NCBI RefSeq assembly: GCF_002087085.1
Contig: NZ_MWQY01000004.1
Coordinates: 1-64,000, forward strand
DNA length: 64,000 nucleotides
Direction of reading: 5' to 3'
Shown here: positions 1 through 6,000 of the stretch, piece by piece
How positions within the stretch are numbered: the stretch's first letter is position 1
How the letters are laid out: every line of letters begins with the position of its first letter
Made by a program: the position numbers

Positions 1-3000
1 ATAACATCCAATTGAGCTGTGTGGCGTTAAGCTGGCATGTGTTTGTGCTGCAACTCTTATACATTCTACTACGATTTCTACCCGGAATCACATGAAATAT
101 TCAGTCACCTGGTTTACCTACTGCACAAACCATGACAGTAGCCACATCTGCTCCAATTGCTGGTTATGTTCTACATCACATCCTATAATTTTTTCCATTC
201 AGCAAACTTTTCCCGTGGATCATTGCTTAGCGCATAAACTTTTACACCTTTAAACTGTTTTAATTGGTGATGATCTAATGGGATATCTGAAAAATAGTTT
301 AAATAAAGATCCAGCATGTTATTTTCTTTAAGTATACCTACTGCACTTATGTAAGTTCCATGGTTTTCTGTGAGTCGTCTATCAGAACCAAATCGTTTTA
401 TTATGTTCCCAGTTTTATCAAGAGTTCGGTGTTCGATACCATACATTCCTGTTTTTATTTCATATTCGCTTAGAATACTAACTTGAGAGGAACGATTATC
501 GTGGATGATGATAATTGATGGATATTTATTTGCACAATATTTCCTTAACTGAACGCTGCCTTCCTTTATCTTTTGACGAATTCTATTCCCAGGTTTTGAA
601 TTCCCCCAGACTGCAAAGTCATTTTCAGATAATTCATTTATTGCACTTTTCTCATCTGGATTTGTCTCTAGATCTTTTATCTCAATGTATATCAAATTAT
701 CATTCAAATATATTAAAAAGTCAGGAGACTTATCTTTTCCTTCAACTATTCTTTCATATCGAATATTTAAAATCGAGCATAAGTTAATGAATTCATACTC
801 TCCATTAGTCATTTTCTTTTTAATTTCTCTAATCTTTCAATTAATTGATTTGGTTTTTTACCTGGTGAATGTCTTTGCTTTGAAAATCTTTCTAGAATCT
901 CAATTTCTTTGTCGATCATTTTTTGCTTCTTAAATACCGTTGCTAATTTTTCATAATACCAAGGTGCCACACCAAATTTCTCTATTTTATCTTCAGATTC
1001 AGTTGCTTCAACTAAATTCCATAGTAGCTTCTCCGCATCGTCAAGTCTATTTTCAGCGATCATTTGTTTTACATCATCTGCATATTCAGTGTAATGTTTC
1101 CCTTTAAAAATACCCGGCTTTTTCATTTAACCATCCTATAATTCATAATTTTAATCAAATTTATTTTGTATGAACATAACATCCAATTGAGCTGTGTGGC
1201 GTTAAGCTGGCATGTGTTTGTGCTGCAACTCTTATACATTCTACTACGATTTCTACCCGGAATAACCTGAAATATTCAGTCACCTGGTTTACCTACTGCT
1301 CAAACCATGACAGTAGCCACATCTGCTCCAATTGCTGGTTATATTGCCCTCTCTTCCTTCAGCAGCCTGAACGACTTAATGATCTCATCCTTCTCAAATA
1401 GCTGATTTGTAATGTATTTATGAAGCACCGTTGTAATAAGCGTTTGGTACGGTAACCCTTCCTGTTCTGCCTTCTCTTTTAGTTTTTCTAAATCATAATT
1501 TGAAATTCTTAGGCTTATCGCCTTATTTTTCTTGGCTCCAGCTATTATGGATTCGACCTTCTTTCTCTTTTCACCTGTGACGGATCGATAGGTGTCAATT
1601 TCATTTTCTATTTTCTTCTCTTCAGCAGTAAGGTTATATCTTCGTTTCATATCATTTCCTTCGATATTTCTTGTGGTATTTTCGACTCTGATAGGCAGTC
1701 TTCAATACGATATTATCATCCTCATCTATTATGAATGGGACAATCCACGTATAGTCTTGTATTTCCATCACAAAATACATCTGCCCCTCACGTACTGGAT
1801 TCTCAATAATATCCATGTACATTCCATCCATAATCATCTGACTTATTTCATCAAAAGAGATATTTCTCTCTAAAATGAGTTTTTCATTTTTTTCTTTATC
1901 CCAGATGATGGAATTCATATCTAATAATACTTTATCGTATATACATTGTCAACCTTATTCAAACACACATGCAACGTCTTTATACATCGAAAACAGCTAT
2001 GCAGGTGCTTTTTAATACTCAGAATCATACAGCGTCTTTACACCATTTTTACCTGGTTGAAGGTGTTAAATTCTTATTCTTCTTTTCAATATGCATTTTT
2101 TTAAGATGTATCGTTTCAAGTTATCACATCTGTGATTCATCAACACCGTTAACCGGCCTTCTTCAATTCTTCTTTTTATTTCTCTAAGTGTAAGCATTGT
2201 TCCTGTGCATTTGTCTTTGATGTCCCTAACTTCTTCCCTGGGTCAATATAACACCCAGTTGAGCTGCAAACCGTTAAGCTGGCGCAGTTTGTGCCTCAAT
2301 CGTAAACAGTATAACTCCACTTATAATCAAGAACAATCGAAAACTATTGTTCCCCATTTTCACGAGCCTGCACAAACTGTGACAGTAGGTTTGTCTGCTC
2401 CAACTGCAGGTTATACTGCGCTGATCCCCCAGGCAGAAGAACCATTTTTCGAACCATGAGGAGAATTTCCATCGAACACCGAAAAATAGTCTCAAAGGAA
2501 AAGTGCGTTTGGCCGTAGCGTGGCCATTAATTGCGTTGGGTTGCGTGCAGGCCTTTGCGTGGCTGCGTGGCCAGGCGTTGGCCAGCGATAGGCCTTAGTG
2601 TAATCTCGATAAACTTTCGTTATCGAATTCCCTCTTCCTTTCCTTCTTCGAAGTCCCCAAAAAAGTGTCTGTATAACATATTCTACCCACTACTTTTGTC
2701 CTATTTTAACCTCTTATCATCTGAATGCGCAATTATTTTACAAAAACGGCGTTCAAAGTAAAAGCATTCAACATTAGCTATGGTTTTAAACAATAGAAAC
2801 TATTGTTCTCCGGAGGTCAATATCAATGGACCAGGAAGTGTACGGTCGATACATTAATTATCTCCAGAAATATCATAAGATAAAAGAGAATCACCTTTCC
2901 TGGTACCTCCATTGGGTAAAGAAATATATCAACTATTGGAATAACGATAAGAACTACCTCAAGGACGACTCAATCCGGAGATATTTTCAATTCCTTGCAG

Positions 3001-6000
3001 ACCGGTATGAACCATGGCAGGTAGAGCAGGCTGCCGCGGCGATTCGTCTTTTTGTTCATTACATGAACAAAATGGAAAATAGCGCAAAACTACAGAAACC
3101 GGGGAATTGGCCGGAGGTTCTGGATAAGATGAAGTCTGAGCTCAGGGTGCAGAGCAAGTCGTATAGAACAGAGAAAACCTACCTCTACTGGGTCCGCGAT
3201 TTTTCCCGATGGCGCAACCCTAAAAACCCGGATCAACTTGGATCTGACGATGTCCGCGCTTACCTCACCCATCTTTCAATCAACCGTAACATATCCTTTG
3301 CAACTCAGAAACAGGCTTTTATCGCTTTACTGTTTTTATTCCGTCATGTTTTAAATATAGAGATAAATGGCCTCGAATCAGTGGTCCGAGCCAGAGTAAA
3401 TAGAAAACTCCCTGTCGTTCTTTCTCCATCCGAGATATCAGGGATCTTACAATATGTGCCTGAAGAATACCGTCTGATGTGCCGCATTATCTATGGGGGC
3501 GGACTTCGACTTTCAGAATGTCTGGAATTAAGAGTAAAAGATGTCGATATCGACGGCGGATCAATCATTATCCGTTCTGGTAAAGGTAATAAAGATCGCC
3601 TGACCTTACTCTCACGGTCGGTGATTCCGGATTTACAGAAGCACATTGTAAAAGTCAGACAGTTATACGAGTCTGATCGCCTTGAAAAATTGCCAGGTGT
3701 ACCTCTGCCTTTTGCATTGCAAAAGAAGTACCCTCAGGCATCTACGGAATGGAACTGGTTCTGGATCTTCCCTTCCCCCCGGTTTTCGGTGTGTCCGCGG
3801 ACCAATCAGCCAGGCAGGTTCCATGTGTTTCCATCAACTCTGCAGCACGCCTTTCATGAAGCGCTGAGAAAATCCGGAATCCCAAAGAAAGCAGGCATCC
3901 ATACCCTGCGACATAGTTTTGCGACACACCTGATAGAGGCAGGTTATGATATAAGAACAGTACAGGAACTGCTCGGCCATTCGAACCTAAGTACAACAAT
4001 GATCTATACCCACGTAGCCACAAAGAATAAGCTCAGTGTAATCAGTCCCATGGACAAAATGGACATCTGACCTTTGAATAGAAGAATCACCCTTGACCTA
4101 TTGGAGCCTCAGGGAAAAGCTCGCCAGAACTTTAATCTTTCAGCTATCCTGCTCAATATAAAAGCATTGTTCCCCATTTATTGACCAGAACAATGCGGGG
4201 CTATTGTTCTGCCATTCCGTTTACACGTACTCGGCCAGCGGCAGGGAAACAAAGAAAACTGTTTCTCCCGGTTTTGACTCTACCCAGATTTTCCCCTGGG
4301 ATGATTCTATGATCCTCCTGCAGATATCGAGGCCAAGGCCCATTCCCTGCATAGTGTTTTTGGTAGTAAAGAAGGGTTCAAATATCCGATCCTGGATTTC
4401 AGGAGGTATTCCGGGGCCGTTGTCTTTAACCGAGATAATCCCCCGGCCGTCCTGCTCCTGTGTCGTGATTACGATTTCGCCGGAACCATTCAACACCTGA
4501 ACAGCATTTCGTATCAGGTTCATCCAGACATTGGATAAGGTATCCGCCCTGGCTTGAACAAGCAGTCCGGAGAACTCTGTTTTGACGCTGATTCCGTGTT
4601 TCAGCAGGTTATGCATAAGGGTCAGCACCTTTTTTATATCCGTTTCCACATCGATTATCTTTGTTGTATCGAAAACAGTTGTTGTAAGGTATGACCGGAG
4701 CGCTTCGATAACATTCGACGCTTTTGCAGAAGATTCTGTAATAACCTCGATCATCCGTCTGATTATTACCGTATCCGAAACCTCCGCCAGGATTTCCCGA
4801 TTCCTGTTTATTGCAAGGTACGGTAAAAGATCATCGAGTTTGTTCAACAGCCCCATATCAGCAAGGCATGCGGTAACTTCAGGACTGTTTGGAATGTTCT
4901 GCTGTTCCAGCAGAGCCTCGATTTCTTTCGTCTCCCGCCGGGAGGGAAGATAAATATCCAGCGTTTTATTGCTTTCTAAACCCAGAACAACAGTTTTCGT
5001 GTATAAGTTCTGTTCCTGATCGGACAGGGAAGAGAAAAAGGCCGGCTGTTCAGGGAGCTTTTTGTCAAATGAATTGACCATCGATGAGACGGCGGATTGT
5101 ATCGCTCCCAGCGGTGTGTTCAGTTCATGGGCTATACCGGCGGAAAGCTGTCCCAGAGCGGAAAGTTTCCCGGATTCAATGAGCCGTTCCTGCATGCGCC
5201 GTAATTCAACGAGAGAGTCTTCCAGTTCCGCCGTCCGCTCGGCAACCCGTTGTTCAAGGGATACATTTATCTCCACCAGTTCGGCATTTTTTCCCTGGAT
5301 TCTTCTGGTCATTTCATTCAGCAGGTTTATTATTGCATCTATATCTTCGTAATCCGTCTCGGGGATCGTATACGCATAGTTTCCGGCTCCGATTTCGCTG
5401 ATTCCCTCGGATAATGCTGAAAAGACCCTTTGTGTCCGCTTTTGAATAAGCACCCGTGTGGCGATTAAATACACTGTCAAAATCGCGATTACCGCAACAA
5501 CCATGGCAAACAGAAAACGCTTGATTGTTAACAGCAGCTCGTTATCACTGAACTGCAGTTCTATTGTTCCGAGAAAAAAATCGTTATAGTTGACTTCTCT
5601 GATCCGCGGCTTGATCCATCGGGACTGGACTGGGGCCGGCTTGTTTACAACAATTCCTGTTGCAGAGGTATCAATAACGATACCGGAGATCCGACCGGAA
5701 GAAAGCAGTGCATCGGCAATCCTGCTAATCTGGCTGTCGTCCACATTATACAGGGGTTCGGTCAGGATATAGACTGTTTCGTCCGCTGCATTTTCTGCTT
5801 TGTTATTCAAATCGAGGATAATAAAGACGGATATGGCAAAAATAGAAACAATCTGAACAATAAATATGGTACCTATTGATATGACAAGAGAAAGAACCTG
5901 GGTTCCTTCTATAAGCCTTTTCGCCGGGTTTTTACCAGCCATTTTCTATTGATTCCCTTCAGCGACAAAAGACCTGACCATTTTTTCAAAAATCCCCTGT

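Follow-up and report, generated by a model that had tools for sequence, protein, structure and literature searches.

An integron integrase gene and a row of cassettes, the first of them without an open reading frame (ORF), lie at the start of the 64,000-nucleotide stretch analysed here (positions 1 to 64,000 of contig NZ_MWQY01000004.1, or C34; the window). The locus raises two questions: what kind of integron this is, and what the ORF-less cassette beside attI does. Judged by its sequence, it is a genuine but ordinary chromosomal integron of a marine Spirochaetaceae genus. To the joint reading, in which a sedentary integron acts as a defence and addiction gene bank, has two arrays without intI at its side and carries a cis-acting ORF-less cassette, we give an even chance. 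The features are collected in Table 1.

Table 1. Features of the integron locus, in window coordinates.
Feature	Position	Strand	Basis or content
attC of cassette 3	1..167	+	attC profile and end overlap; contig start is its R box, continues on C58
Content of cassette 3	168..1175	-	TPR-like protein 809-1126; PD-(D/E)xK-like protein 183-812
attC of cassette 2	1176..1342	+	98% identical to 1-170; DNA fold z -2.16
Content of cassette 2	1343..2247	-	BrnT-like toxin 1652-1918; CopG/BrnA-type antitoxin 1339-1650
attC of ORF-less cassette	2248..2414 (cassette itself counted from 2252)	+	DNA fold -31.4 kcal/mol, z -5.67
Content of ORF-less cassette, first cassette beside attI	2415..2676	-	copies in three species; no conserved ORF
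attI and intI/Pc control region	2677..2825		conserved in G004 and G002; eight attI-type sites aligned
intI, integron integrase, 414 aa	2826..4070	+	TIGR02249
Conserved element ~85-145 nt past intI stop	4153..4215		repeat families D6, D7, D9; conserved in G004 and G002

Integrase, recombination sites and array layout

Family assignments, sites, copies and synteny were observed directly. The first-pass annotation had an integron integrase facing attC-bounded cassettes, and this stands: IntI matches TIGR02249 at 5.7e-121 and 403.7 bits (cut-off 265; profile positions 1-315), and the window holds three cassettes with attC hairpins of about 165 nt. The class-1 equivalog NF011946 gives 318.9 bits, under its cut-off of 435. 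The alignment with the solved structure of VchIntIA (2A3V; E 1.3e-72) covers residues 111-411 and takes in the integron-specific insert; with this insert, the protein is a standard IntI except for residues 1-98, an extra, diverged SAM-like N-terminal domain. This part shares 33% identity with the protein's own SAM domain (E 2e-5), and PF13495 reaches 23.7 bits on it, under the cut-off of 27.

Just ahead of the intI Shine-Dalgarno sequence lies the palindrome AAACAATAGAAACTATTGTTC (2788-2808). The conserved element behind intI contains the palindrome GAACAATGCGGGGCTATTGTTC and can be aligned with positions 2753-2815 ahead of intI. A promoter scan of the attI/control region revealed only weak sigma-70-like sites, on the - strand (2762>2735 and 2709>2680). 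The locus is fixed, with a histidine-kinase flank on the intI side that is syntenic in the two congeners G002 and G004; together with a homogeneous attC family, this bears out the earlier description as a sedentary chromosomal integron.

In the window, cassettes and repeats have the same spacing (1175 and 1072 nt), and all cassette ORFs are located on the strand opposite intI. The attCs measure about 100 or about 165-170 nt. Folded as single-stranded DNA, they show an R box of 5 bp, a spacer of 3 nt, an L box and a stem with bulges; the boxes of three folds read ATAAC...GTTAT and, after the spacer, CAATTG. Fold z-scores are -2.2 and -5.7 for attCs of the window and -5.8 for a member of the family on C75 that is 100 nt long. 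The hairpin apex of the ORF-less cassette's attC is formed by the palindrome GAACAATCGAAAACTATTGTTC. In an attC, the bottom strand carries its extra bases on the 3' arm; by this rule and the ORF orientation, we take the + strand for the bottom strand, the one that recombines. Integrons join their first cassette to attI at G|TT, or AA|C when the opposite strand is read, and the attI junction ATAA|C is located here at 2676/2677. The attI core is composed of ATAAC, 13-15 nt and C(A/C)(C/T)..CTTTT, and the sequence after the junction is conserved at eight attI-type sites from six genomes. IntI is expected to act on the folded bottom strand of the attCs, here the + strand, and to recombine these hairpins with attI at this junction; new cassettes would enter beside the integrase, to be read leftwards on the - strand. 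Putative excision and integration of cassettes by IntI would suit the near-identical copies that one cassette has at attI and within the array (a 98% pair in this genome). The cassettes have 31-37% GC against 53% for the genome and are taken as AT-rich imports.

Beyond C34, the arrays extend over C75, C41, C46, C58, C24 and C9, with about 19 cassettes in total. An nhmmer search with an attC profile of the three copies in the window reproduced the 23 matches on these seven contigs, while the earlier figure of about 19 sites gave way to 17 distinct attCs and one remnant (C75:190916-190939) once half-site profiles were applied. Contig ends stop inside attCs, as first noticed, with 55-nt overlaps, and the near-identical attCs would be the points where the assembly broke the array. 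Contig order, based solely on these end overlaps, would lead from C75 or an IS and C41 to C46, and from there either through C58 to C34 with attI and intI, or to C24; C9 would be placed behind another IS. C46 has two entries and two exits, and from these rather than from read depth we infer that it occurs twice. At the end of both the C24 and the C9 array lies an attI-like junction that has no integrase next to it, and a tblastn search of the genome revealed a single full-length IntI and none on C9 or C24. The contig graph therefore suggests a single complete integron alongside two arrays that lack an integrase; three attI-type array ends replace the two arrays that had been thought probable. 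The integrase-less arrays, still ending in attI-like sites, could be served in trans. Large arrays of sedentary integrons commonly comprise more than 20 cassettes; the longest intI-linked path in the graph has about 13, in an order taken from end overlaps.

Cassette cargo

The cargo is rich in toxin-antitoxin and defence-gene homologues by Pfam and PADLOC, both here and in G002, as the first-pass annotation held for this genome. Pfam assigns four toxin-antitoxin pairs (two VapBC, one BrnT-like/CopG-BrnA, one Gp49 with HTH), so that the VapBC and CopG-type cassettes were found again. Four cassettes have PADLOC matches, with the earlier values reproduced: SoFic (2.7e-119), an AriA-like ATPase (2e-28), NsnA (2.6e-69) with a HEPN gene, and a methyltransferase (MTase_II, 3.3e-125) with an HNH protein (2e-20). 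At E<=1e-5, 22 of 28 cassette ORFs are without a PADLOC match. The array of G002 spans at least 37 kb (27 attC profile matches, at least 22 attCs), and 10 of its 39 ORFs have a PADLOC match at E<=1e-10.

The SoFic protein covers positions 13-359 of the 361 of PDLC03963 with its residues 14-360 and contains the Pfam domains Fic_N, Fic and SoFic-like_C; as a single Fic-domain protein with a full-length model match, it is a predicted defence protein. Likewise, the methyltransferase on C9 and the adjacent HNH protein, which share a cassette, form a predicted type II restriction-modification system. Other defence matches are partial systems. The AriA-like ATPase (433 aa, AAA_15) is alone in its cassette, which contains no second gene, no AriB and no Toprim domain, and PARIS (AriA and AriB) was rejected. 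NsnA, with a GmrSD_N domain and a putative part of the Nsn system of PADLOC, has the RiboL-PSP HEPN gene as its only neighbour. The cassettes would mostly be self-promoted toxin-antitoxin pairs and one- or two-gene defence modules, and the locus, by content, would therefore be a defence and addiction gene bank.

In cassette 2, the antitoxin matches CopG_antitoxin at 31.8 bits (cut-off 28), and the toxin reaches 27.1 bits with BrnT_toxin, under the cut-off of 34.5. The pair has its own strong promoter-like site (1952>1924, TTGACA-17-TATTAT, 11/12 in the promoter scan), and the approximately 300 nt upstream contain a single 43-aa ORF (2066-2197). Two copies of this cassette, at 93-96% (tblastx), are located in the G002 array. 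In cassette 3, the stop of the gene for the 105-aa helical TPR-like protein overlaps the start of the 209-aa gene, and neither protein has a match in Pfam, NCBIfam or PADLOC. The family of the 209-aa protein has 558 representatives, with E5, D31, E44, K46 and N172 invariant in 64 sequences. Its AF2 model (pLDDT 96.4) matches mostly nucleases, at weak scores (best Foldseek E 2.7e-3; VIA Z <=7.9, middling). Nucleases of the PD-(D/E)xK class combine a restriction-endonuclease-like fold with an E...PD...ExK motif, and the protein is a candidate for this class.

The ORF-less cassette beside attI

About 260 nt had been given as the extent of the ORF-less cassette, which fits its content; the whole cassette, including its own attC (2252-2414), spans 2252-2676. 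Its description as GC-rich applies only to the central 100 nt (61%), the overall value being 48%, which makes it the most GC-rich cassette of its array. On the + strand, the centre is G/T-rich, and its 100 nt carry eight GCG triplets at intervals of 8-15 nt, against 3.3 expected (P ~0.009). All four copies reported for this genome were recovered, one beside attI (C34:2400-2700) and the others at C75:196275-196553 (98.6%), C75:196700-196978 (85.4%) and C41:310-49 (92.1%). With five further copies in G002 and one in G004, the family has 10 members, all with exact cassette boundaries and none with an ORF conserved across the family. Each of the three species has a copy adjacent to attI, and tandem pairs occur in both this genome and G002. 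Cross-species pairs reach up to 95% identity, versus 71% between the integrases. Read from these copies, the element is a real, conserved and apparently mobile non-coding cassette, which IntI would have moved to attI repeatedly and duplicated, with related species sharing copies. In G001, G003 and G005 the first cassettes are coding, and in a metatranscriptome contig attI seems to continue into a different first cassette; the first place is therefore not always held by the ORF-less cassette.

Most likely, the cassette would influence in cis the transcription that enters the array, serving as an untranslated leader, a weak promoter or an attenuator, and is not a folded RNA. Against such a role, none of the 10 copies has, in a consensus scan, a sigma-70-like site of at least 8/12 on the + strand, and the - strand offers weak 8/12 sites only, in four to five of the 10 and none conserved. 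Such in-silico scans, as PMC11014356 reports, do not predict the activity of gene-less cassettes. Both strands contain C>G windows suiting Rho loading; read-out from gene-less cassettes of Vibrio is described as unchanged by Rho inhibition (PMC11014356).

The first-pass annotation had proposed a regulatory RNA or decoy, for which we found no support. Its Rfam null was confirmed for the copies at E<=10, RNA folds give z -1.5 on either strand, and none of the 46 predicted pairs is compensated (covariation term +1.21), a result of low power since several of the 10 copies are near-identical. With neither an Rfam match nor covariation, a structured non-coding RNA was rejected. In the form of a small RNA or a protein-binding decoy or sponge, whose GCG(T/C)(G/T)G units or apex palindrome would titrate a regulator, the idea is improbable. 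The periodic GCG triplets are kept in the most diverged copies, but the central hairpins are gone in diverged ones. The apex palindrome, GAACAAT-N8-ATTGTTC, resembles those just before and after intI, yet attCs of coding cassettes in G002 have it too, so that it is not specific to the ORF-less cassette. A related copy is partly represented among contigs of two marine-sediment RNA libraries; these contigs have a depth of 2-4, give no strand information and may stem from DNA in the libraries.

A stronger competitor, doubtful though conceivable, is a selfish, hyper-mobile mini-cassette without host function, which would explain copy number, tandem pairs and the place at attI. Being short and having the most stable attC (-31.4 kcal/mol, z -5.7, versus -21.2, z -2.2, for the neighbour), it would be excised and reinserted at attI by IntI more often than others. 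This would suit the 98% identity of the attI copy to the internal C75a copy, the G002 attI copy, which is 66-71% identical to others with no clear-cut nearest relative, and the failure to find an ORF, promoter or RNA structure in the cassette. However, a pure hitch-hiker would require nothing beyond its attC, whereas blocks of the content are invariant across copies otherwise 56-71% identical, and GC content and the periodic GCG motif set this cassette apart from all others; selection could equally explain the high cross-species identity. Descent from a decayed protein-coding cassette is very improbable. Some copies do have accidental ORFs of 60-79 codons, but every frame is interrupted in at least one copy, indels of 1-4 nt run throughout the element, and invariant blocks in 10 copies from three species at 56-98% identity are not expected from decay; furthermore, a profile of the element matches nothing else in the genome or the congeners' loci.

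Comparison with known systems

A spirochaete defence integron had been put forward as new. Among 401 sampled Spirochaetota genomes, 42 have an integron integrase, and an IntI is present in all five congeners; attC models for Spirochaetes have been published (PMC8352920), and integrons as defence banks are already in print (Darracq 2025, Kieffer 2025 and Getz 2025, cited in PMC12614218), so that the novelty is not supported. The caveat that defence cargo is known from Vibrio was confirmed in the literature, where sedentary integrons of Vibrio are presented as anti-phage defence biobanks (Darracq et al. 2025, Getz et al. 2025, cited in PMC12614218); here, the defence role is predicted from gene content. 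The V. cholerae superintegron and other sedentary integrons of Vibrio share with our locus a chromosomal intI, a conserved locus, homogeneous species-typical attCs, a predominance of toxin-antitoxin, defence-type and unknown cassettes, and cassettes common to several species. Unlike Vibrio, the present genus belongs to another phylum, its arrays are much smaller (about 13 cassettes intI-linked; at least 37 kb in G002), its attCs are longer (about 100 and about 165-170 nt) and its IntI has the extra N-terminal domain.

A closer parallel for the first cassette is the oral Treponema integron, another spirochaete integron, in which the ORF-less cassette TMB4 adjoins attI, shows bidirectional promoter activity and is surrounded by BrnTA and VapBC cassettes, according to PMC6557892. 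In contrast, a single ORF-less family in multiple copies and three species, with no strong sigma-70 match, is found here, a comparison made by description only. Gene-less cassettes bearing promoters are also described for Vibrionaceae superintegrons (PMC11014356); they too are non-coding, lie inside sedentary chromosomal integrons and could modulate their neighbours. Bounded by attC or attI and free of a conserved ORF, our cassette falls in this class, with promoter activity putative. The same source ties promoter-like sequences to AT-rich DNA and calls cassettes AT-rich (PMC11014356), whereas the present one is the GC-richest of its array, with a periodic GCG motif. Defence cargo of chromosomal integrons is already published, and so are ORF-less cassettes with promoter activity, among them the one in first position in Treponema (PMC6557892).

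The C24 and C9 arrays resemble CALINs in having attCs with no integrase beside them. Cury et al. are said to have described CALINs in 2016 (PMC4889954) as attC clusters lacking an integrase. At least two attCs with no intI nearby mark the class, to which we assign C9, with 1.5 attCs, and the C46-C24 path, with three. Unlike CALINs, both arrays keep an attI-like junction at their end, and they more resemble integron platforms after the loss of intI than loose fragments of an array.

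Integrase, attC sites and associated palindromes

The integron itself is secure. IntI scores well above the cut-off of TIGR02249 (see the table) and below that of the class-1 equivalog model. Its residues 111-411 align with the solved V. cholerae IntIA (2A3V, E 1.3e-72), over a span that includes the stretch distinguishing integron integrases from Xer recombinases. All five congeners (G001 to G005) encode IntI, with identities of 91% in G004, 71% in G002 and 42-46% in the other three, and the flank on the intI side is syntenic in G002 and G004. In a sample of 401 Spirochaetota genomes, IntI exceeds the cut-off in 42; at E<=1e-60 it occurs in 44 genomes, belonging to 23 of 153 genera.

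The first 98 residues of IntI form an extra N-terminal domain, which resembles a diverged second copy of the protein's own SAM-like core-binding domain (33% identity over 60 aa, E 2e-5; PF13495 at 23.7 bits, under its cut-off). It is kept in four congeners, with L57, W64, Q68 and W95 invariant, and is modeled as four helices at pLDDT 75-86 inside a whole-protein model of low confidence. The open frames of most spirochaete IntIs comprise 395-479 aa; a Treponema-like group has a different, unnamed N-terminal extension.

Features of the window and of related contigs. Positions without a contig name refer to the window; C9, C24, C32 and C41 are contigs of the genome under study, G000.
Feature	Position	Strand	Remarks
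attC, three direct repeats of ~165 nt	1-167, 1176-1342, 2248-2414		left of intI
209-aa protein	183-812	-	family, 558 representatives at E<=1e-3 (exhaustive search)
Sigma-70-like site	1924-1952	-	TTGACA-17-TATTAT, 11/12
ORF-less cassette	2252-2676		own attC and ~260 nt content; attI junction 2676/2677
GAACAAT palindromes	2333-2350, 2790-2806, 4190-4207; C32:422, C32:3020		also six G002 attC apexes
intI	2826-4070	+	414 aa; TIGR02249 403.7 bits, cut-off 265
Extra N-terminal domain of IntI	2826-3119	+	residues 1-98
attC-like hairpin	C32:2355-2464		ATAAC...GTTAT; DNA fold -18 to -23 kcal/mol
attI-type array ends	C24, near 1722-1760; C9, near 3772-3810		
IS30-family transposase gene	C41:311-1393		282 aa; HTH_38 and rve
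Array of congener G002	C1; L012:16820-18151, L013:6826-7934		443-aa reverse transcriptase; retron-type NDT gene with RT fragment
Toxin-antitoxin cassettes (four)			BrnT-like with CopG/BrnA (window); VapBC twice; Gp49/HigB-like with HTH (Pfam)
SoFic cassette			PADLOC 2.7e-119
AAA_15 AriA-like ATPase cassette			without AriB; PADLOC 2e-28
NsnA/GmrSD_N cassette			RiboL-PSP HEPN gene adjoining; PADLOC 2.6e-69
D12 methyltransferase and HNH protein cassette			PADLOC 3.3e-125 and 2e-20

ATAAC opens and GTTAT closes each attC of the window. Single-stranded, the sites fold into a long bulged stem with an R box of 5 bp, an L box (CAATTG) and an unpaired spacer of 3 nt; of the two window sites that were folded, one has a z-score of -2.2 and the other of -5.7, and a family member on contig C75, 100 nt long, has one of -5.8. 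Long and short members have arms of about 48 nt in common and differ in their terminal part. In attC sites, extra bases on the 3' arm mark the bottom, i.e., the recombining strand. Since the extra bases lie on the 3' arm of the + strand, this strand is read as the bottom strand, which agrees with the orientation of the cassette ORFs: every one lies on the - strand, divergent from intI. Cassette junctions fall between AA and C, and the resulting cassettes of the window (1175, 1072 and 425 nt) are as long as the spacing of the repeats.

A family of palindromes, GAACAAT-N6-8-ATTGTTC, occurs at several attC apexes, just before the Shine-Dalgarno sequence of intI and about 120 nt past its stop codon. 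Both G004 and G002 conserve the stretch 4153-4215, which can be aligned to 2753-2815. The family could represent a regulator site or relics of attC tips. LexA was considered for the control of intI and rejected: LexA is present, but the upstream region of lexA itself lacks the intI palindrome. The single attC-like hairpin on C32, an unlinked 12.5-kb contig missing from the list of the first-pass annotation, belongs to a different sequence class and lies among AT-rich cassette-like genes, an RHH-PIN pair included.

One integrase and three attI-type ends

Searching with a profile of the three attCs of the window, we reproduced the 23 attC hits of the first-pass annotation on C9, C24, C34 (the window's contig), C41, C46, C58 and C75. 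Half-site profiles delimit 17 distinct sites and a remnant at C75:190916-190939; the first-pass annotation gave about 19 sites. Adjoining contigs share exactly 55 nt at their ends. In the resulting graph, C75(+) or C41(-) leads to C46(-), which continues either through C58(+) into C34(+) or into C24(+); multi-copy IS contigs precede C41 (C57) and C9 (C51). From the contig graph alone, we infer that C46 is present twice. On C41, the IS30-family transposase gene is inserted exactly between ORF-less content and attC.

The junctions at the array ends on C24 and C9 align with the attI of C34 and with those of the five congeners, in a common pattern of ATAAC, 13-15 nt, and C(A/C)(C/T)..CTTTT, and tblastn of the G000 genome places a full-length IntI on C34 only. 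Thus, G000 has three attI-type ends and one integrase, and the C24 and C9 arrays have no intI beside them. Within 1.5-kb flanks, neither array is syntenic with the integrons of the congeners. The G002 locus matching the C24 flank carries neither attC nor attI, and the match to the C9 flank may be a paralogue. The G002 array itself extends over 37 kb or more, and the attC profile hits it 27 times. The finding of three attI-type ends with one integrase bears on the origin of integrase-less attC clusters.

A conserved cassette without a gene

All four ORF-less copies of the first-pass annotation are present in G000, at 85-98.6% identity. Among 61 genomes (G000 included), we found four copies in G000, five in G002 and one in G004, and none in G001, G003, G005 or 55 genomes of other genera; a profile search for distant copies returned the ten known ones only. 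A 17-letter degenerate pattern hit 118 metagenomic stretches, and none of the 80 loci fetched matched the ORF-less or attC profiles; the pattern is therefore too unspecific. G000, G002 and G004 each have one copy immediately adjoining attI. G000 and G002 both contain a tandem pair, and the order at the G000 attI, BrnTA cassette (BrnT-like toxin with CopG/BrnA antitoxin) followed by ORF-less cassette, recurs inside the G002 array. Identities do not track species: the C41 copy of G000 is 95% identical to one G002 copy (G2_a), and the G000 attI copy is 98% identical to a copy on C75 (C75a). The G002 attI copy is only 66-71% identical to every other copy. For comparison, IntI identity between G000 and G002 is 71%. 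Such a pattern is consistent with a cassette that was repeatedly excised, put back at attI and exchanged between species, or with a strong sequence constraint.

What is conserved in the content are blocks of sequence. One of them, the central 100 nt, has a + strand rich in G and T (G39, T28, C22, A11), where GCG triplets recur every 8-15 nt; there are eight of them, whereas a mononucleotide shuffle predicts 3.3 (P about 0.009). At 48%, the ORF-less content has the highest GC of any cassette in the array.

We favor a role in cis, in which the cassette, as leader, weak promoter or attenuator, would influence the transcription that enters the array, because the content is conserved and not the attC alone, and because the cassette recurs next to attI, where platform transcription would enter. 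Analogy points the same way: promoter activity has been measured for ORF-less cassettes of Treponema, one of them in first position (PMC6557892), and for those of Vibrio (PMC11014356). Against this role stands that no positive signal of a promoter or terminator emerged from our scans of the cassette; on the + strand, none of the ten copies has a consensus sigma-70 site, those on the - strand are weak and conserved only in part, and sigma-54 and sigma-28 motifs were not seen by eye. Also counted against it are the lack of effect of Rho inhibition in the Vibrio study (PMC11014356), C>G windows on both strands, which make such windows non-discriminating, a contig from RNA libraries that seems to join attI to another cassette, and the coding first cassettes of G001, G003 and G005. 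Attenuation by Rho was among the readings set aside: Rho is present, but neither strand stands out by its C>G windows. The RNA libraries (X19, X20) yield low-depth contigs that cover brnA, attCs and, in part, a related ORF-less copy; these lack strand information and may reflect DNA carry-over, and uncovered stretches are uninformative.

The principal alternative is that the mini-cassette is selfish and, owing to its very stable attC, would be moved more often than any other; to be set against it is the conserved content that speaks for a cis role. The regulatory RNA or decoy proposed in the first-pass annotation is less likely, its structure being unsupported by folds (single-sequence z-scores of -1.5 on both strands), by Rfam, which gave no match to the content, and by RNAalifold on both strands, where none of 46 pairs showed a compensatory change and the covariation term was +1.21, ten copies providing little power. 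A decayed gene is likewise less likely; a conserved ORF was not found among the copies, a 20-codon frame being present in six, longer in the attI copies of G002 and G004, and cut or shifted in the remaining two.

Beyond the favored role in cis, we consider it improbable, yet worth stating, that the family is a dedicated control module, movable by recombination, that gates read-through of the array, with the integrase-less arrays served in trans by the same IntI. The cassette would then serve as a leader that is not translated. Through its C-rich sense transcript, or through its GCG repeats, whose spacing is roughly helical, a host factor such as Rho or a repeat-binding protein would gate read-through from the attI-side promoter into an array of toxic genes for defence and toxin-antitoxin functions. 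Each time IntI inserted, duplicated or excised the cassette at attI, it would reprogram expression of the whole array, and it would likewise act in trans on the two integrase-less arrays with attI-like ends.

Cargo, natural setting and known integrons

From the site map and ORF lists, we count about 19 distinct cassettes in G000, with contents assigned by Pfam and PADLOC. In addition to those in the table, one more cassette encodes a HEPN protein, four are ORF-less, and the remainder is unnamed; 22 of 28 cassette ORFs have no PADLOC match at E<=1e-5. The cassettes have a GC content of 31-37%, compared to 53% for the genome. Directly upstream of the BrnT-like gene lies the near-consensus sigma-70-like site, as would be expected of a self-expressed toxin-antitoxin cassette. 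In the G002 array, 10 of 39 sense-strand ORFs (>=70 aa) have PADLOC matches at E<=1e-10, which include PD-Lambda-1, PDC-S01, SoFic, retron-type NDT with RT, and a methyltransferase-endonuclease pair. The same array contains a 443-aa reverse transcriptase shortly after an ORF-less copy, with RT and homing endonuclease as best PADLOC models, which may be a group II intron protein; elsewhere, the retron-type NDT gene adjoins a 177-aa RT fragment.

The third cassette of the window encodes a 105-aa and a 209-aa protein. The family of the latter has invariant residues E5, D31, E44, K46 and N172 in 64 aligned sequences and is present in one of the 401 sampled Spirochaetota genomes, G000. Judged by its model (pLDDT 96.4), the protein is likely a PD-(D/E)xK nuclease; such nucleases make up most fold matches, but these reach only Foldseek E>=2.7e-3 and VIA Z<=7.9. 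The upstream 105-aa protein is small, helical and TPR-like, and its look-alikes in a structural atlas, to be taken as leads only, are fused elsewhere to HIRAN or RNase_T domains. A complex prediction for the pair scored 0.01, which counts neither for nor against binding. Compact unnamed cassettes such as this one constitute a short list for phage-defence screening.

Roughly half the words sampled from 1-4300 occur in marine water and sediment metagenomes, and metagenome contigs from several studies carry near-identical intI, ORF-less and BrnTA cassettes. Many of these contigs join the attCs to other cassettes and other terminal-loop variants; thus, the natural cassette pool of the lineage is much larger than G000 shows.

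The spirochaete defence integron put forward as new in the first-pass annotation has precedents, as chromosomal integrons of spirochaetes and defence cargo in chromosomal integrons have both been described. The same holds for integrase-less attC clusters and for ORF-less cassettes. In the integron literature searched, we found no description of a multi-copy, cross-species family of ORF-less cassettes at attI, nor of attI-bearing integrase-less arrays in spirochaetes. The ORF-less cassette is the more useful lead: with its conservation, its several copies, its occurrence in more than one species and its position at attI in three of them, it offers a convenient natural case for the function of gene-less cassettes. 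With the locus as a whole, the picture of chromosomal integrons as banks of defence and addiction genes, known from Vibrio, now extends to an uncultured genus of marine spirochaetes.
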